From: Cirrosporium novae-zelandiae
Lineage: Eukaryota
NCBI GenBank assembly: GCA_026023565.1
Contig: JAPETS010000003.1
Coordinates: 124,001-188,000 of the forward strand
Length of the DNA: 64,000 nucleotides
Direction: 5' to 3'
Of this stretch, positions 23,688 through 33,900 are shown piece by piece; the first letter of the stretch is position 1; every line of letters begins with the position of its first letter. The notes under the pieces were generated by a model, which was given only the letters and a program-made list of their open reading frames with translations, had not been told where the DNA came from and made no database searches. The position numbers and the translations under genes were made by a program.

Positions 23688-26672
23688 CTACCCACCAGGC
23701 ACATACCGATCAATCTGGATCCAACCCTCCGGTTTCCTAGCCTCCCCTCTCTCAACCCTCTCTCTGCGCTCAATCTTTTCCCTCCTGTCATCCCTGATAC
23801 TCGCTGTGCTGAGACGGCGAGAGGTATGACTATCCCTATCTCTATCTCTGTCTCGGTCGCGGCCTCGATCTCGATCTCTATGAGAATTGGAATATCTATC
23901 GTATTTATCACGGTCACGAGTGGTGCTGGTGATGCTGCTTCTTCGATCGCGGTCGTCGGTTCGATCACCCTCCCTTCGGCTGTCACGCCTACCGCTATCT
24001 CGATCGTCTATGATTTCCCCCTGTTCGCGTGTGCTAGCGCTGTTGGGGCGGTGTGCTATTATTGTTGTTGTTGTTGTTGTGGCAGTTGTTGATTTGCGGT
24101 CGTCTTGTTCTCTTTCCTTGTCCCTGCCTCTGTCCCTAGGTTTGTCCTTGTCCTTATCCCGTCGATCCCGTGGCGATTCTACAATCTCGCCCGCTTCGTG
24201 GTCTTTGTCTTTGACAGTGGTGCTCTTGGAAGAACTTGATGGGACGTAGCGGTCATATGATTTTTCAGGGCTGTGAACCTGAGAGCGGGAGTCGTGGCGG
24301 GATTTGTAGGTGCGATCGCGATCTCTGTCTCTATCTCTGGTGTCCCTGTAGCGATCATAATCCTTGTCGCGGTAAGATCTCGAAGTCCGGGATGGACTTC
24401 TACTCCTATGTCTACGGTCTTTTTCCCTGTCCCTTTCACTAGCGTATTCCTTCCTAGAAGATGTGGGCTTTACAAAAGAGGCTCGAGAGCGAGAATGAGA
24501 GTGATCGTGACCGCGATCATGACGGTCATGAGTATCGTCGCGACGACGGGTACGATCTCTCTCGCTGTCGTGGTAGCTGTCGTAGTCTTTTTCGTGATAA
24601 GATCGCGAGGCCCTTGATGGGCTTCCGCTCTTTGCGTGCCTGCTTCTATCCCTATCGCTGGCATATCTCGAAGAGGAAGGCTTTGTATACGGGGCCGGAG
24701 AACGAGACGGATCGCGGTGCTCGCGGCCATGGTGGCGATCACGGCTTCTTTCTGTTCCTCTGACACGATCGTAGTCCTTATCCCGGGCATCATCGCGAGA
24801 GTAGGAATTCCGAGATTGGGAATAGTGTTCGTAGCCTTCACGTCTCCTATCCGTGTCTTTTTCTTTTTCCTTCTCTTTATCCATCACTCGCTCCTTGTCT
24901 TTTTCGCGTTCCGCTTTGTGCTCATGTTCATGACTACGTGTATAGTCATCTTCCAAGACACTCTGGTTAGCAACGGATGGAGGCGGAGGCATCGCTAAAG
25001 GCATAATTCTGATTTTTCCTTTTTCTGGTACCTTTTCCTCTACGTGAGATGGTTTAGCTAGCTGGGAACGTTTAAACTCCTCGGCTTCGGCCTCACGCTT
25101 TTTTCTGGCTTGGGCTTTAAGCAATTCTTCCCGCTCCATTGCCCTTTCGCGCTCTTTCCGCTTGTCGTTCTCATGATCATGATCATGGTGAAGGGGTTCG
25201 GCACGGCTATGGTCATGCGTCTCTGAGGTACGAGTCGCATTTGTATCACGAGTTGGAGAAGGGGACCGGGAGTGATGGTGATGACGAGATTGGGAGGTCG
25301 ATGCCGGGTTGGAAGAAGGTCTGGCGGCGAGATCATGCGAGGAGACGATAGAGCGGTGGCGATGATCCCGGTCTTTATTATCCCTGCTTCTCTCCCCATA
25401 CTTGTCTCGGTCTTTATCTCTGTCCTTATACTCTCTATCTCTCCTGTCTCGACTCCTCTCTCTGCTCCTGGTCTTTCCCCTACCCCTCTTTTCCATTCTC
25501 CTTCTCTCGTTTTCTCTTTCCAGTCTTGCTAGCCTTTCCTCATCTTTTTCTGCCTTTGCAAAATCAAATACTGTCTTGGTTTGTGATTTTGCAGCCAGTT
25601 CCTGGCCTTCTCGTAGAAGCAGAGCAAGTGCGGCTTCTTCAAGAGCCTTTTCGTCGACCGGCTCAGGGGTGCCTGTGGTGGCTAGTGGTTTGGCGGAGGA
25701 AGGGGAGCGCTTTCGGGTTGCTGAGATGGTGGACGTGGCTCTTGGAGAGGGGCGACGAGAGCGGCCAGATGTGCGATCACGGTCTCCAATTTTAGATCGT
25801 AATTCATCTTCTTCACGTCGTTGGCGCTCCTCTTCTTCTCGCTTTCGTTTTCGTTCCTGGCGCTCTTTCTCCCATTGTTCTTCCTCTTTCTTCCTTTCGG
25901 CACGTCTACGCTTCTCTTTCGCTTCCTCTTCAGCTCTTTGCGCCTCTCTCTCTTTGCGCTCCTGTTCCAGTCGTCTTCTTTTCTCCTCCGCCTTGATTTT
26001 TGCTTTTTCCTCTGCAATCTGCCTTTCTAGTTCATTCCTCCTGAGCCTAATTTTATCTCTTTCACTTTTCCTCGCTTGGCTCTCTCTTTCATAATCCGCA
26101 TCAGTTTTATTCCCCGTTCTTTCTTCCTCGGTAGCAATTTCGTCGCCTACTTCGGCACGTCGGAGTTCTCGTATGGCGTCAAGCGCATTTCCAAGATGGG
26201 CATCTAGCAGTGCTTCAATGTCGGCTCCGACAGTTTTGTAAATAGCGCTGCGATCGACGGCACCTTCAATTAGGGTGGCCGCTTTGCCGCGTTCACGAGA
26301 AAGAAGTGAGGGTTGCCGATCAATCTCAGATTCGGCAAGGTCAGTCAGAGAAGTCTTAAACTGTTCTTTAGCATCCTAGATATTAAAACATAATTATTAG
26401 TTTAGCTCATCGCAAATCTATGCACCCTTTCGCCGGCAATGTGCATGTGATAGAAATGTAGACGGGACACCAACACTTTGTTCATATGTTTTCCATACTT
26501 CCTTCCGGATATTATCAAAACCCCCCTGTTTCTTATAGGTATGAAGTAAATTGCTAATGGCAGATCTTTGTGCTGCAGTAAGTGGGAGGTCCGAGGTCTT
26601 GAGCTTCTTGCGGGGGCGCGCTGGAGCAGCTGGGGGAATAGATTCTGGGTGAGGATGCTCAACTGGAGCCAT
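23688..26672 (-). CDS. COMPASS Shg1/BOD1-domain protein with coiled coil and long Arg/Asp-rich tail (about 960 aa), 2 exons
   Basis: YKKQGGFDNIRKEVW...LLSRERGKAATLIEGAVDRS (Shg1/BOD1 signature); intron 26376-26474; hand translation shows exon 2 open from 26375 into ORF 23688-25496. Confidence 0.82.
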
Positions 26673-27094
26673 AATTAGTTACAGTTGCATACGATAATCT
26701 GTATTCAAGAAATTCAAAAGACTTTGACAAGATACATGAAATTATGAATTCAAGAAAGTTCGCGATGGTGAAGTAAGTAGATAGCTTTACAGGTGAACAA
26801 GGATCCTTAGAAAGGAAACTCGGCAAACGCGACGTTTCGGCCGAACCATTTCTCCAGCTTCCAGACCCCGACAACTACATCGGTTTCCTCCGGACAGTCA
26901 AGACCAGAGTCTCATTCCCAAAATATTCCCGTATCCTTCCTCCAATTGACCAAACACCCAGTATAAACTTCAAGCGATACTCTATAATCTCAATATTTTC
27001 CCGCTCAGGCTACTGAGCACGCCGAATTGGATTCCTCTGCTATCATAGCAGCTGTGCAATACTCCACTCTCCACTCCAATCAATCTGGTTCAAT

Positions 27095-27469
27095 ATGGTC
27101 GGAAAAGTCCTCTTCTGGAGTGGCTTCGGTGCGTGATATTCCCCTCTATGTTTCCAGAATTGGATATACAGGTCGTGGGGGCTAATACCGGAATAAATTC
27201 CTACAGGCCTCGCAGTCCGTATGTGGCAACTCGGCCTCGAAATGCGCCCCCTCTTCAACCGTGAATCCCTCTGGGTATGGCCCGTCTTCGCCGCCGCAGG
27301 AGGCTCCTTCGGCTACTGGCTTCAGGGCGTGGAAGCCCGGCAAATAAGAATCTTAAGTGACCGTAAAGATGCACTGTTAGAGAAACGGAGGAGAAGGGCC
27401 GAAAGGGAAGGGAAGCCTGTTAAGCTTGATAAAGTTGAGGAGGGAGCTGTTTTAGCAAGCACGTCATGA
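27095..27469 (+). CDS. NADH:ubiquinone oxidoreductase accessory subunit (NDUFC2/B14.5b-like), 2 exons
   Basis: MVGKVLFWSGFG|LAVRMWQLGLEMRPLFNRESLWVWPVFAAAGGSFGYWLQGVE; intron 27129-27206. Confidence 0.82.
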
Positions 27470-28031
27470 AACAAAAGTTGAATATATGATTAGTGTTAGA
27501 ACCATGAGATCGGTCAGAATGAAGGTGGGTGGGGAACTAAGATTCCAAGAAGAGATGGCGGGCGAGACCAGATGAATTTTGTACAGCATTTCTTATCAAT
27601 GAACGACATGTCCAAGCTTATTCTGATTATGTCTCGAATGCTCCCCTTTGAATCGTTAAAACATAAAAGCCCATTCATTGATATTCAGCCCTCGTCATTA
27701 CTATATCTCCAATTCTGACCCCTTAACCCCCCTATTTACTCACCTACTAACTTCCACATGTCATATCATAAAACCCAATCATAGCAGTTACTCTCGTATG
27801 TTCCTCATCCCTACAAAAACACGCGTTTGTTTTCATTTCTCAGTCGAGGGGTTGGACACAGGTAATCGAATATGTCATCAAGATGAACTGGAGTTGATCA
27901 ACGGATGGTTGTTTAGAATATCCTGACATTTATCTCTTTTATTTAACCTAATATCTCCCATAAAAGCTCTCCCTTACGCCCCCCTAGCTCCCCTAACTAA
28001 AAAAAAAAACAATCTAATCATTAAAAAGTAC

Positions 28032-28473
28032 AAAAAGTTCAGATATCCACCCCCCAGAGTCTGAGTTATTGGTGATAATCTTATGAAAACCCCACCTCAG
28101 GCCTGCTCATCCTGAGAGGGATTGTTCGTCCTCCCCCCTGTCGACATCCTCCGACGGTCATGTTGATTGTCGATGGTGGTCGATGGTTGGTTGGTGGTTC
28201 CGCCGTTTGGTGGGTGGTTCCGCCGTTTGGTAATCGCAGGTAATCGCAGGTAATCGTTCGTTCGTTCGGTCGTCGGGACGGTCGTAACCGTAAGGTCGAA
28301 TTCGGAGGATGTCGTCTGGATCGAAATTGGTGTATTTCGTTTTGGTTGACATGAATCGGATTCGAACTCACGGGTTGTCGTCTGGCAGTACGTCGCCGGC
28401 GTCCTGTACTGAACGGTTTACCGTTGAGCCATTGGTCTCTCGTTAGATAGCTTACCCAAATTCTAATATATTA
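28032..28473 (-). ncRNA. candidate Pol III (type-2 promoter) structured ncRNA or tRNA-derived SINE
   Basis: TATA-like TAATATATTA 28473-28464, A box TGGCTCAACGG 28431-28421, B box AGTTCGAATCC 28368-28358, 13-bp perfect stem, T4 at 28089-28086 and T5 at 28036-28032; no tRNA cloverleaf. Confidence 0.55.
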
Positions 28474-29114
28474 AGGGCCTCTGGATTCCTGTTCTAGCTG
28501 CTGGGGTCTCTTAGAGGGAGTAGGACTCTTGATTCCCTTCTCGGTCATACCCATATCTCCCTAGTGCTCATCACCTCTAGGCTTCTCGTTGTATCTCCTA
28601 CAACTCCTCTCATCTCAACAGTCTCCTCTCAAACCTGACCTCACCGCCCCCCCTCACCGTCCCCCTCTTCTCCTCACATCAACACCACCCTCTCCTAACC
28701 GACCGAGATATCTTCACGTTCCATCCCCACCCCCCCCTATTGAACCCACTAGCATCCCACCCCTTACCAAGCTTCTCATATCACATCCAAAAGAAAGGCA
28801 AAGGATATACATCTCCACAACTCTTCTCACCTTCTACTTACTAACGTTATCTTAGGTAAGTCTTCCCTTTTCTCATTTAACCCAAAGGTATCCAACCACC
28901 TACCTCATCCCTTACTCACCACTCACTCACCACTCACCCAACACCCACACCCACACACTTCTTCTCCTTCTCTTCACAATAATCCAAACCCACCCACCCA
29001 GCCATCATGATCCTCATCCTCATCCTCATCTTCCTTTCCAGTGTCACCAAACCAAACTTTATCTAAAGGGAATAAGGTATCCCTAACTTCAATTATTACA
29101 AACTTGAAGGGAGG

Positions 29115-29117
<3 letters not shown>

Positions 29118-29162
<45 letters not shown>
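29118..29162. repeat. (GA)n microsatellite, about 22 units
   Basis: directly visible. Confidence 0.9.
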
Positions 29163-29166
<4 letters not shown>

Positions 29167-29888
29167 AAAGAAAGTAAGGTAGGTAAGCACCTTTGTCATC
29201 TGACCGATCAACCAACTAACAAACTGACTAACTAGTATTAGAAACCAAGCGAGAGTTTACTTACTTCTTTTACTTTCGTATTCAACCCATATACCCTAAT
29301 ACCCTAATACTGGATGAAAGATGTAGGAAAGAATATACCTTAGTAGGCTTGATATGATAATAAATGCTAGCACCTAACCTTATACATAAACAATCTTCAA
29401 ATCATAGAACTATTTTTTTTCTTTCCCGATTAATACCCACCAAGATAGATCTCAACAACATACAATCAAAGTTCTTAATTCCTTCCTCAATGAGTCTCAC
29501 GCACGAACACAGACATCATGACTACATTCGTATTCGTGTTCGTACTCGAGTTTATGATACTACAGGTGGCCCATTGATATGCATGTTCCTTGTTGGTTGT
29601 AGATAAGGAGCGAAAGTATGAGTTGAAGATAATGGGGCGAGGCAAATTGTTAGTAGCAATGAATAATGTATTTGGTATTTTTTCTTTAATCAAACACAAG
29701 CCTCGCGACCTTCGCTATATGCCATCTTCAGCATCTTCAGTTTTACAAAAAATAAATGTAACCCTCCCCCGGAACACCTCATTCCCAGAATTTGAGACAT
29801 GACTGGTCCAATGCCCCGTCCATGAACGCTGTAAAAGCAAATAGATATTGTAACATGATATACCACCCGTTAACTAGAAACCAAGGAC

Positions 29889-30991
29889 TCAATAATTAGC
29901 CAGGCCATAACCTGAGGTTCTGTGCATGCTCGGAGTGTATTCCGATGCTGAGCCATCGTTATACACTGTGGCCCTTCTATTGTCGTCTTCTCCTGCGTCT
30001 TTGACCTCCCAGTTGTTGACCTTCGTGCCCACGCTAAATTCGAGATCTTCCCTCGTGATCGAGTCCCAGTACTAAGAAACCATGTTAGTAAATATCTACA
30101 AAGAGAGGCGTGGAAATCTTACTTTATAAACCATCATCACTGCCAGTAGATTGCAGATGGTCGCGAAAAAGAGGCCGTCGAGATAGTGGGAGAGTGAAAT
30201 ACAGAGAGTTGTGTTGAGTGCATATAGAATGACCTGGCCCATCACGAAAAAGAAAACACCAAAGGCAATATCTCCTAGTGGCCATCGATCTTGGAGCGTA
30301 TTCACAACCAGGATGATCTGCATCACCACGTAGACGAAAATGCAAATGGCATTGATAATGTAGGTAACCACGAATAATCCCAGGGTATTAGTCGGTCCTA
30401 ATCCAGCCCAGCCCTTGAACGTCAATAGAGATACGGCACCAGAAACAAGGAACATGCTCGTCGAGGCCAGTCGCTCAAGCCAAACTGATAGACTTGTGCC
30501 ATCCTCGTAGAGCTGGAATCCAACGAAACCATTGATAAGCAGGCAAGTGCACAGGGCGCTGGTGAGTCCATTTTGAATAGCTACAAAATATGAATATGCG
30601 CCTTCGCCTGGAAGTATAACGCCAGCATCGAGGAGAAGCGATACGAGGGTAAGGAGCATATATAGGTAAAAGAAAGAGGTGATTTCTTTTCGACCTAAAA
30701 ATAGAAATTTGATTCAGCATATCTTCATGCAGAATCAGATGACCTGAACATACCGACGGCAGTAAACTTTGAGCGGACATGTATTATCATAATCACTGTC
30801 ATTCCCAGGGCCATTAAATGTATAACGTCGGTGGCAGTTTGAAATAGGATAGTGTTGGCGACCTCAATACTTCGTGCATAACAATCAGGCTGGATGCCAG
30901 TCCCGCCGGTGATGGGGGAATCTCCTCCGACGAGAGCACATAAAGGCAACGAAGATTGTTGGCATATTGTATCAAAGTCCCCAAAACCCAT
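29889..30991 (-). CDS. CHS7: chitin synthase export chaperone Chs7, 3 exons
   Basis: [18 protein letters not shown]...[14 protein letters not shown]...[13 protein letters not shown]...[36 protein letters not shown]; introns 30695-30753 and 30072-30122. Confidence 0.95.
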
Positions 30992-33900
30992 CTTGCTGTC
31001 GCCGTCGCCGCCGTTGGGCAAACACCTTGTGAGAGGAAGGGAGTATGGTTTGATGCGACTGCTGTTTGGCGTCCTAGGGGACTATTCGACTCCGATGACA
31101 ACCAAGGAATGACCTTTGCGAGCGATTCCTGGTATAAGGTTCCTGACCTGGTTTCAACGAGGGAGTAATTTCGCGACCTCGAAGGAACGAGTGTTTGGAT
31201 ATTCTCCGTCAAGGCGGATACAAAAAAATAAAACGAAAGTGTAGGTGCCGTGGCTGTGTATACTGTCGTGACTGGTGTAGGTTAAGTGTTGTGGTTTCAA
31301 GCCTGGGGCAACCAAAGTAACCTGTTACCAATACGAAGGGTACGGTACATGGTACATGGAATAGCCGGAATCATCGGAACAATCGGAAGAATCAGCGATT
31401 TTCCCCGCCACGCTAACACCCAATAGAGAGTAATGTCCTCGACAAAAGCCCTAAAGCCTTATTTTAGTAAAATAGAAGCCCTAGAGAAGTTCTTCGCTGA
31501 TATCATACTCTCCTCCGTCCATTGGTGAAAAGTCTACAAAGTCACAGTACTCGAGGACAAACCCCGTGACCGTCTAGCCATGTGCGTACTTTGCAATGTG
31601 TAAAGTGTAAACTATAAGTCTATGACCCGTAATTTGACTTCACCCTTTCTAGAGACACAAAAGGCTTTCAGCCTCGACAAAATCCAATCACACAAATGGA
31701 TTCGACACCCTGTCAATCGGCCAAGGAAATTTGATTACTCTGACGTTTATCATTTTCCTAATGGTTTCCAGAGCCGGTGGGAGAGAATGCAACACCAATA
31801 ATGACATCGACCGCAGGTAAATTGAAAAGTGATCAGATACGAAATAGCGCTAAGTACTCCCCTTCTAATTTCAATTTTCCAGCATTGATCCTATTTGATC
31901 CTTCTACTCCCGTCCGTCCTCGCACCACCTAACAACCGTGCGCCAGACATTCGATACCCATCCCGACAAAAGAAAAACATACAGACGCGTTGCATTTCAT
32001 CATATCCTTCTCAATCCAGCCAAAATCAAACATCCGAAGCACTCTCGGTGTCGTAAGAACGACAACTCCGGGCAAAGAAAATCGCACCAGCGACATGTTA
32101 TCGCCTTTTATCCTTGCATAGACACGCCGCATATCCGACATCTTACGTTCCATCATCCCTAGGACCAAAGGTTCCGACCTAGAGATAGCAAAGTCGAAAT
32201 AGTTTCTTGGGATACAATGTCAAGTCAAGCCATGTCGTCAAATATAACAATGGATGGCGGTGATGGGGGGAGACGGTATAGGCAATGGTTGCAGCAGGCA
32301 AGATACCCCTCAATGATCATGAACCTGATATGATTAGTAAACCGTCATTAAGAAGAGGTGGCTAGAATCTACCAAAGAGCTGCCCTATTCCATATTTCAT
32401 ATCATCTTGTGCCCGTGCACATAGGGCATTGTCCGGGTTCCACAATGTACCGTTCGTGTGGCCCCCTCGAGCATACACTACTCCTGTCACCCTCCGTCAC
32501 AACCCTGAAGAAATGAACCGACGGGTTATGGCAGCCATCATAGATGTAGTAATTCTTGTAGTATTCACACATGGTGGAAGATAAGCTATAGTCCAGCTAT
32601 AGTGGTGAACAAAAACTTGGGATCTAGAAGGAACATTAGCCATGTAGAGATGATGATAGCCAGCTAGTTACTCACAACGACTTGGACGATGAAGACAGCG
32701 CTCGCCAGGTAAGTTTGGGGTTGAGGGTAAAAGATCACAAGCTCATCGAACCGGCGATGATAATAAGTATTAACAAGGACAGTTCTGTTGATCCAGTGGG
32801 ACTTCACCGTGGTCTTGTAGTTCAATGGCCCCTTGCATTTTGACTACATGGCATGGTATTTAAAGGGTAGGCCCTGCAGGGTGATGAGGAGCTCGGGGAT
32901 GGTTGTAAAAAGAAGAAATAGGAAGGAGGAGCTCTGATAAGAAGCGAATCCCAGATTGTTGGAAGCAACGCCCAAGCACCTCGCAACCAGGCGGGGCCCA
33001 TGTTCCCATTAGAAGTTTGTGGGATCAGGAGAATAGGTTTGGATATGAATGTGATGCACAAGTTTCATTGGCATGGTCGTTAGGAAGAAATCCCAACGAT
33101 TCATCGTTGACCAGAAGGGGGTGGGTCTAAACCCTGAAAATCGACGATGAACTAACATCTCTCTGCTTGTTCAGGCATATCCGGAAACACAGTTCCAGCC
33201 CAAAGATGAGAGACGTCGTGTCTTTTGTCAATGTCTGTTCGCACGGAGATAACTTCTCTTTGGTCGCAAAGGCCCGAGCAAGTTTCACCTATCGTCTGAA
33301 TTGTAAGTTACGACTTTTTGGAAATTGTATTGTTGTTCGCTTTGGCCATGACTTCATTTCTTTTGGCTTTTGGGGAGACGAGACTGAGTTTGCAATGATC
33401 GGCCCAGCCTGGGTCTTTGGGTTAGGGAGCGCGTTAGGAGAGTTAGCATCTGATCGACTACTGTACTGGAGTATTGTTTGGGGGGAATAAAAACTTCAGG
33501 AACTTCGGGCTTTCAACGGTTTCCTACTCGTTAAAAAGGATGGACAGGAGGTCCTGGTCACACAAGCCTGATAGGGATCTTATAGAGGTCAGTGCGATGA
33601 TTGAGAAGCTTCCATCAACTTATCAGTTCTACTGAGTACTCGACGAGTATTTTGTTAAATGCATATTTACCCATGTTATGTCACCCGGCATCAAGCGACG
33701 ATGCCGTGTCGCCCGTACATACATACAGCAGATGGATTCCGTGAAGATATTCAAACGCTTGGACAGGGAATCATTCCATCATTTTATAATACTAACCCTT
33801 TTGAGCATACCCCCAAGGCTTTAGATCCTGGTTGCCACGGTCCGAGCTGCAACTTGACCACGAACACCCTTGAAGGCCTGTCGAGAAGATCATCGAGATA

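Follow-up and report, generated by a model that had tools for sequence, protein, structure and literature searches.

A low-copy dispersed repeat with RNA polymerase III-type signals in Cirrosporium novae-zelandiae, a candidate T-tailed SINE-like element

Contig JAPETS010000003.1 of Cirrosporium novae-zelandiae (GenBank assembly GCA_026023565.1) carries, between the genes NDUFC2 and CHS7, an A box and a B box of the kind that RNA polymerase III (Pol III) uses, at a place where no tRNA is apparent, and the question arises what kind of unit these boxes belong to. The stretch analyzed here, referred to as the window, comprises 64,000 nucleotides of this contig (positions 124,001 to 188,000 of the forward strand), and all coordinates below are those of the window. 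An earlier note, made from the sequence alone, described the locus as an orphan Pol III-type gene for a highly structured non-tRNA RNA and offered a novel Pol III RNA or a short interspersed nuclear element (SINE) as its interpretation. The analysis presented here leads, with about even confidence, to the reading that the locus belongs to a dispersed repeat family of low copy number, likely a SINE-like retroposon with a T tail and Pol III transcription, or what is left of such an element. Seen directly, and described first, are the motifs, the repetition and the match of the repeat boundaries with the predicted start and terminator.

Copies were sought among the contigs of X1, a DNA run of about 36 Mb that may be the source of this assembly and was the only one of three listed runs to contain the locus; its contigs were aligned to positions 27100-30700 at 80% likeness. 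They were counted as contigs, the summed depth not being a copy number, and all counts apply among the matches listed. In total, 15 pieces of X1 were placed on this interval, of which six are at least 99% alike and represent the locus itself and nine lie below 99%. The segment 28030-28442 recurs on other contigs of the same genome with about 80-97% identity; both of its flanks are single-copy, and the bins outside 27947-28551 show single-contig coverage only. A contig of 3710 nt (record 6) aligns over 28296-28442 (15 differences, 2 gaps) and over 28102-28160 (2 differences), and in it the 135 nt of the window from 28161 to 28295 are swapped for 58 other letters. Three further contigs (records 2, 3 and 4) match from 28030/31 to 28127, 28120 and 28092, respectively, with 6-8 differences and 1-5 gaps each; in the record ending behind 28120, the similarity persists by our reading for about 16 nt further. 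In two more contigs (depths 365.9 and 411.6), the 3′ module is joined to 25-27 nt that run from 28406/7 to about 28432 and represent the A-box segment, and one more contig with the 3′ module (depth 355.8) was seen among the indels. Altogether, the other loci amount to about six contigs.

The description as an orphan can therefore not be upheld, since several further contigs of this genome carry the stretch as well. Of the two interpretations offered, a novel Pol III RNA or a SINE, the common part stands, since the Pol III-type anatomy holds, whereas the headline of a single-copy structured RNA is unsupported. The earlier note had itself named copy number as the deciding property, with many copies speaking for a SINE, and by this measure the SINE branch is favoured. 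SINEs are short (about 100-600 bp), interspersed and multi-copy, and the unit found here is 412 nt long, dispersed and present in low copy number. Within the window, no second copy was found: blastn with a word size of 7 gave only short low-complexity matches, the best of them 30 nt at 83% in a T-run. An exact-match search with a pattern of the head yielded 0 matches in metagenome, prokaryote-genome and viral contig collections, and one with a 21-nt core of the 3′ module yielded 0 in metagenome contigs; few fungi are present there, and these blanks say little. Six words of 16-17 nt taken from the element had no match in searchable paper text.

The main reason for accepting a Pol III-type unit is the position of the repeat boundaries, which coincide with predicted transcription signals independently of the A/B-box pair. 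At its start, 28442, the shared stretch has the TATA motif 21 nt upstream and the A box 11 nt downstream, and in three contigs it ends at 28030/31, immediately past the first T5 run. As the window contains 243 runs of at least five T in 128,000 strand positions, the chance of an end lying 0-2 nt past such a run is about 0.006. With its start near the A box and the TATA motif and its end at the T5, the repeat unit equals the predicted Pol III transcription unit. Past the shared end, the three other contigs are unrelated but T-rich, with T-runs of 7-13 on the minus strand (A-rich on the plus strand). In the window and in these three contigs, the unit hence ends in T5 followed by unrelated T-rich sequence, as a T-tailed SINE would, and this arrangement is equally compatible with the terminators of a gene. 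On the upstream side, record 6 has TATATATTA in its loose end, 21 nt away from the shared start just as in the window, and the 21-nt spacer between the TATA motif and the shared start is unrelated (5 of 21 positions match by our count). A TATA-like box at the same spacing is accordingly present in both copies with a visible upstream flank, namely the window and record 6. The two strands of the window together contain the motif ATATATTA 7 times.

The TATA-like box, the A box, the B box and the T4, T5 and T11 runs claimed in the earlier note were each found where it had placed them, and a second T5 run at 28027-28023 (minus strand) was absent from its list (Table 1). Taken singly, the boxes are not exceptional: the A-box pattern has 2 matches in the window versus 2.78 expected, which is within chance, and the B-box pattern has 1 match versus 0.23 expected, with at least one match in 20 of 100 shuffles. 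The ordered arrangement of an A box followed by a B box on the same strand, 25-75 nt apart, occurs once in the window. About 2e-4 such pairs are expected per window, as our product of the two single-box rates, or about 0.1 per 36-Mb genome. The pair is beyond chance for this window; due to the expectation of about 0.1 per genome and the scanning of many windows, it is by itself suggestive and not conclusive. On sequence grounds, the element has a predicted internal type-2 Pol III promoter near the 5′ end, as is expected of a SINE. The T4 run at 28089-28086 is probably a leaky Pol III terminator, and the T-rich tail at 27999-28030 may represent either backup terminators or a SINE tail, both of which fit equally well.

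Table 1. Coordinates of the repeat unit, its predicted transcription signals and its flanking features in the window.
Feature	Position	Strand	Remark
Repeat unit, same extent as the Pol III transcript predicted to end at the first T5 (about 410 nt; unit 412 nt)	28031-28442	minus	from contig matches; loose ends at 28442 and 28030/31
TATA-like box TAATATATTA	28473-28464	minus	-31 to -22 if transcription starts near 28442
A box TGGCTCAACGG	28431-28421	minus	pattern match; 11 nt from the shared 5′ boundary
B box AGTTCGAATCC	28368-28358	minus	spaced 52 nt from the A box; 74 nt inside the shared 5′ boundary
13-bp inverted repeat, 5′ arm (CGACATCCTCCGA)	28302-28314	minus	in a block conserved with record 6
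Variable middle with short tandem repeats (periods 10, 20, 10, 4)	28169-28273		from repeat detection; replaced in record 6
13-bp inverted repeat, 3′ arm (TCGGAGGATGTCG)	28142-28154	minus	in a 59-nt block conserved with record 6
3′ module, with the CUCAGG/CCUGAG hairpin and the T4 run	28031-28137	minus	commonest part among the copies; records 2, 3 and 4 and the contigs of depths 365.9, 411.6 and 355.8
T4 run	28089-28086	minus	no listed difference inside it in other copies
First T5 run	28036-28032	minus	end of the similarity between copies
T-rich tail	27999-28030	minus	second T5 at 28027-28023, T11 at 28009-27999
Possible upstream copy of a target-site duplication, degenerate (AATTTGGGTAAGCTA)	28448-28462	minus	11 of 14 positions matched, one gap
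Possible downstream copy of a target-site duplication (AGTTAGGGGAGCTA)	27985-27998	minus	14 nt directly after the T11 run

The window was searched for known RNA genes with ARAGORN, which detected 0 tRNA genes, and with Rfam, of which 0 families reached the gathering score. Across 27500-29000, no match to tRNA, 5S, signal recognition particle (SRP), RNase P or snoRNA families was obtained within the element at E<=10. The statement that the element cannot form the D and T stems of a tRNA agrees with these searches and with inspection, by which GCTC has no GAGC partner and GTGAG/CCGAT provides three of the five T-stem pairs; equally, no signature of a U-snRNA, SRP, RNase P/MRP or 5S RNA was found at the gathering score or, within the element, at E<=10. 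The sole Rfam match at E<=10 in this interval is outside the element: the archaeal C/D-box family sR15 matches weakly at 27759-27812 (minus strand) in the 3′ region of NDUFC2, with 16.5 bits compared to a gathering score of 40 and E 6.2. It is at chance level and was treated as such. Three other candidates were considered and rejected. A C/D-box snoRNA in the 3′ module (AGGAUGA at 28113-28107, CUGA at 28042-28039) has no terminal stem, and its putative guide region contains indels between the copies; the short open reading frame starting from the ATG at 28162 is not coding-like; and inspection of the unit ends revealed neither terminal inverted repeats nor a Helitron-type end.

The high degree of structure ascribed to the RNA was not borne out. 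A 348-nt RNA has a minimum free energy (MFE) of -99.5 kcal/mol (z -1.43), and 10 of 100 shuffled sequences fold as well; for the predicted 410-nt transcript (28441-28032), the MFE is -115.0 (z -1.25), and 24 of 200 shuffles are as good. The folding energy is thus ordinary for the base composition. All six complementary segment pairs proposed in the earlier note, including the perfect 13-bp inverted repeat, are present in the sequence, but only two of the proposed stems are part of the MFE structure, CGAAAU/AUUUCG (pair probability 0.98) and CUCAGG/CCUGAG (0.94). The other four, which include the stems of the 5′ multibranch, have a pair probability of at most 0.10, and for the 13-bp stem it is 0.000 in the thermodynamic ensemble. 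Imposing all six stems carries a penalty of 11.8 kcal/mol. As a DNA feature, the perfect 13-bp repeat can be extended to 18 nt at 89% (repeat search), and the 147 nt that separate its arms consist mostly of short tandem repeats. The opposite strand (28086-28433, plus) folds better relative to its shuffles than the proposed one, with z -2.85 and 0 of 100 as good compared to z -1.43, which is probably a G-U effect of a G/T-rich strand.

The differences between the copies were examined for signs of constraint. For the head of record 6, the listing gives 11 of 15 substitutions and omits those close to the end of a piece. Its B box shows no listed difference, though the adjoining positions 28354, 28355, 28370, 28371 (an insertion) and 28373 differ; to find all 11 bases unchanged at a divergence of about 9% is not significant (p about 0.35 by our estimate). 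According to our mapping, the CCA of the TGG/CCA closing stem is altered at two of three positions in record 6, by which two of the three pairs are lost. Furthermore, AACGG/CCGUU loses its terminal pair through the change at 28412, barring a compensating change in the unlisted zone, and the change at 28407 is G-U-compatible in CAGUAC/GUACUG. Overall, the listed differences comprise 10 transitions and 8 transversions, and many indels of 1-3 nt are found within 28046-28090. This mixture of transitions and transversions, together with the many small indels and a middle that is swapped or enlarged by tandem repeats, points to neutral decay rather than to a constrained fold. Repeat-induced point mutation (RIP) was rejected as the source of the differences, since 10 of 18 changes being transitions is no RIP-like excess.

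For a SINE-like retroposon, we infer transcription, the polymerase involved and the route of copying as follows. TFIIIC would bind to the B box (28368-28358) and the A box (28431-28421) and TFIIIB would be placed at the TATA-like box about 30 bp upstream, so that Pol III would start near 28442-28440. The polymerase would read through the weak T4 run and stop at the T5 run 28036-28032 or at the T5 and T11 runs just beyond, yielding an RNA of about 410-440 nt, whose reverse transcription into T/A-rich sites would have spread the copies. The transcript-sized unit, the decaying copies and the variable T-rich tails fit such a retroposition.

Several points weigh against this reading. About six other contigs are few for a SINE, and a SINE-type head derived from a tRNA, 5S rRNA or 7SL RNA was not recognisable with ARAGORN and Rfam. 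An identical TATA motif at 21 nt in a second copy, across an unrelated spacer, suggests an arrangement typical of genes, and the conservation of both ends, with a variable middle between them, may likewise stem from selection acting on an RNA. The evidence for a target-site duplication (TSD), for which the window copy was compared, is weak as well. In an anchored test, the 11 of 14 matches between the two candidate copies were reached by 37 of 4414 genomic 14-mers and by 22 of 3000 shuffles (p about 0.008), the test having been defined post hoc; because it was devised after the match had been seen and three T-runs could have served as the anchor, the result is taken as p about 0.02-0.03. An unbiased alignment of the two 60-nt flanks was not significant, being equalled by 245 of 2000 shuffles and 103 of 640 genomic controls, and with other gap costs 234 to 664 of 2000 shuffles were as good. 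Membership in the SINEs is the most likely assignment and is not proven, given the head that is not tRNA-like and the weak TSD evidence.

The upstream TATA motif also suggests a small dispersed family of lineage-specific, functional Pol III RNA genes of about 410 nt, maybe derived from SINEs or acting as SINE masters, which is a possible if rather unlikely explanation. A TATA box at about -30, the A and B boxes, a conserved 5′ segment, an equally conserved 3′ module of about 105 nt and T-run terminators would be retained in every gene, and the middle would be a tolerated, repeat-expanding loop. In its favour, TATATATTA is found at the identical spacing in the window and in record 6 in spite of the unrelated spacer, ATATATTA is rare (7 in 128,000 strand positions of the window), long T-runs are present in every downstream flank shown, and the B box of record 6 is unchanged next to five altered positions. 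Moreover, what can still be aligned in copies of greater divergence is the A-box segment and the 3′ module, and both 13-bp arms lie in conserved blocks that bracket the variable middle. There is also precedent: in rodents, the genes for 4.5SH and 4.5SI RNA carry specific TATA-like boxes at -31/-24, a place taken by random sequence in SINE copies (PMC7279448), and Neurospora microRNA-like RNA (milRNA) precursors are Pol III products (PMC3547838). However, a divergence of about 4-20% and numerous small indels separate the copies within a 3′ module that is supposed to be functional, the folding energy is ordinary, and four of the six proposed stems have a pair probability of at most 0.10. Record 6 breaks the TGG/CCA stem and one AACGG/CCGUU pair, with one G-U-compatible change to set against them, no Rfam family corresponds to the element, and a TSD is weakly hinted at. 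One other copy enters the TATA comparison, and its spacing could be imitated by a sequence-specific choice of target sites combined with a duplication of fixed length. In its most specific form, a lineage-specific Pol III gene family of a filamentous ascomycete with an RNA of about 410-440 nt, a TATA box fixed at -31/-22, a middle expanding freely between the 13-bp arms and a predicted 3′ module of about 105 nt ending in a hairpin and a U-run, this explanation is a tentative and somewhat more doubtful proposal. It would make the family a fungal counterpart of rodent 4.5SI/4.5SH or, alternatively, the promoter would be of the leader type for a 3′ mature RNA.

Less probable still is a dispersed repeat that is not transcribed by Pol III, such as a fragment of a transposable element or a DNA-level duplication, in which the boxes, the TATA motif and the T-runs are fortuitous. 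Each box is within chance for the window when taken singly, a chance pair is estimated at about 0.1 per 36-Mb genome with very many windows scanned, and the region is rich in low-complexity sequence; yet three independent coincidences would be required, namely the A-then-B order with workable spacing near one end of the repeat, a repeat start placed 11 nt ahead of the A box and 21 nt past the TATA motif, and a repeat end at a T5 run (chance about 0.006). In addition, inspection showed no terminal inverted repeats at the unit ends. As the target preference could mimic the TATA spacing and one other upstream flank is available, the SINE-like retroposon was given about even weight, the gene family a clearly smaller one and fortuitous signals a small one. 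It is very improbable that the stretch belongs to a Pol II unit, either as a CA-rich 5′ untranslated region before a short open reading frame in a favourable start context (caacATGacc at 28162) or as a long non-coding RNA. The segment 28300-28163 is indeed CA-rich like fungal leaders and the ATG at 28162-28160 opens a frame of 26 codons by our reading, but a 129-aa open frame has no Pfam match, indels of 1-2 nt between the copies occur downstream of the ATG, and no coding-like continuation precedes the convergent NDUFC2 gene. An orphan Pol III gene that exists as one copy between NDUFC2 and CHS7 and encodes a novel RNA of high structure can practically be dismissed: its motifs are real, no known RNA family was matched and no second copy lies within the window, but it is contradicted by the matching contigs of the same genome and by a structure within what the composition gives.

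The element is located within a 2.6-kb gap between two convergent genes, for which the labels NDUFC2 and CHS7 of the earlier note proved right. The plus-strand frame ending at 27469 matches the complex I subunit NDUFC2 (PDB 7zm7_b, E 4.6e-28), and the minus-strand frames 30099-30713 and 30725-31081 match Pfam Chs7 with E 1.8e-78 and 1.8e-27, respectively. Among the longer-than-query proteins searched, the relatives of CHS7 have at most 77% identity, and the named ones are from lichen-forming and black-yeast ascomycetes; the host is accordingly placed as a filamentous ascomycete without a close sequenced relative in the searched set. Two other organisms from the same study as X1 (runs X2 and X3) have only 36-42 nt in common with the interval, within the CHS7 coding region (30120-30161) at 80-90% likeness, and are not close relatives. 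Between the element and CHS7, a long pyrimidine-rich (CT) tract extends over 28560-29190 on the plus strand, with a GC skew falling to -0.74, and ends in a (GA)n/(CT)n microsatellite. The contigs of X1 break at this tract, the skipped repeat being 28982-29190. The tract looks like the CT-box promoter region of fungi, and no convincing gene was found before the 3′ end of CHS7. On the other side of NDUFC2, an open frame of 895 aa (23688-26375, minus) shows low complexity of the RS/RD type, with an extremely high content of R, D, E, S and K, and upstream of it a short exon-like frame (26418-26678, minus) matches the start of Pfam COMPASS-Shg1 with E 7.4e-07. Both frames probably belong to one intron-containing gene.

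The value of the finding is modest: a repeat family of Pol III type that is missed by tRNA and Rfam scans is marked in a lineage of fungi from which few SINEs have been described. A further lesson is that a seemingly orphan gene with A and B boxes requires a copy-number check before it is labelled as a novel RNA. If the element is a T-tailed retroposon, a tail type of plants and animals would be extended to an ascomycete, and a partner reverse transcriptase would be indicated. Should it belong to a family of genes whose upstream TATA box is fixed, the element would represent a new lineage-specific fungal Pol III RNA and a concrete case of SINE-like units turning into genes.

Among known systems, the yeast genes RPR1, SNR52 and SCR1 have A/B-box promoters that drive non-tRNA RNAs, with SNR52 using a leader-type promoter for a 3′ mature RNA. 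These are single-copy, conserved RNAs with curated Rfam families. The element resembles them in combining A and B boxes with a predicted non-tRNA product and differs in being repeated and in having no RNase P, SRP or snoRNA match at the gathering score or, inside the element, at E<=10. The Neurospora milRNA precursors transcribed by Pol III are likewise intergenic, with TATA-like elements, poly-T stops and stem-loops, but the milR loci are reported to lie mostly outside repeats and milR-1 has no A and B boxes (PMC3547838). The sole long perfect stem of the element (13 bp) is, by comparison, short for Dicer and thermodynamically unfavoured.

The rodent 4.5SI and 4.5SH genes share with the element the A and B boxes and a TATA-like box common to the copies, and they encode lineage-specific, SINE-related Pol III RNAs (PMC7279448). 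The same source gives a TATA box at -30/-24 for tRNA genes from plants and from S. pombe. The 4.5SI and 4.5SH RNAs are 94-98 nt long, abundant and experimentally shown, whereas the RNA of the element is predicted, with about 410 nt, and its TATA comparison relies on two copies.

Described fungal SINEs range from 140 to 900 bp with 1-160 copies (PMC5063351). Mg-SINE, Foxy, nrs1, EGH24/Egr1 and AfuSINE2/3 are like the element in size, low copy number, A and B boxes and intergenic site, nrs1 having 500 bp and 11 copies, and Mg-SINE mimics the 3′ end of the MGL long interspersed nuclear element (LINE) (PMC5063351; PMC2104539). Compared by description, the fungal SINEs are reported to be derived from tRNA or 5S, unlike the element.

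With respect to its 3′ end, the element is comparable to SINEs for which ends in TTT, TTTTT or T-rich tails are documented (PMC6007223). These T-tailed SINEs have tRNA-derived heads, clear TSDs and a known LINE partner with a common 3′ end. The element differs from them in its head, which is not tRNA-like, in its weak TSD evidence, in its about six other contigs and in its ascomycete host. On the other hand, the plant Au-like SINEs and some AFROSINEs, mobilised by LINEs of the RTE clade, are like the element short and dispersed, with an internal Pol III promoter (predicted in the element) and with TTT, TTTTT or T-rich ends instead of poly(A), and the sites at which the T-tailed SINEs insert are T-rich, as those of the element may be (PMC6007223).

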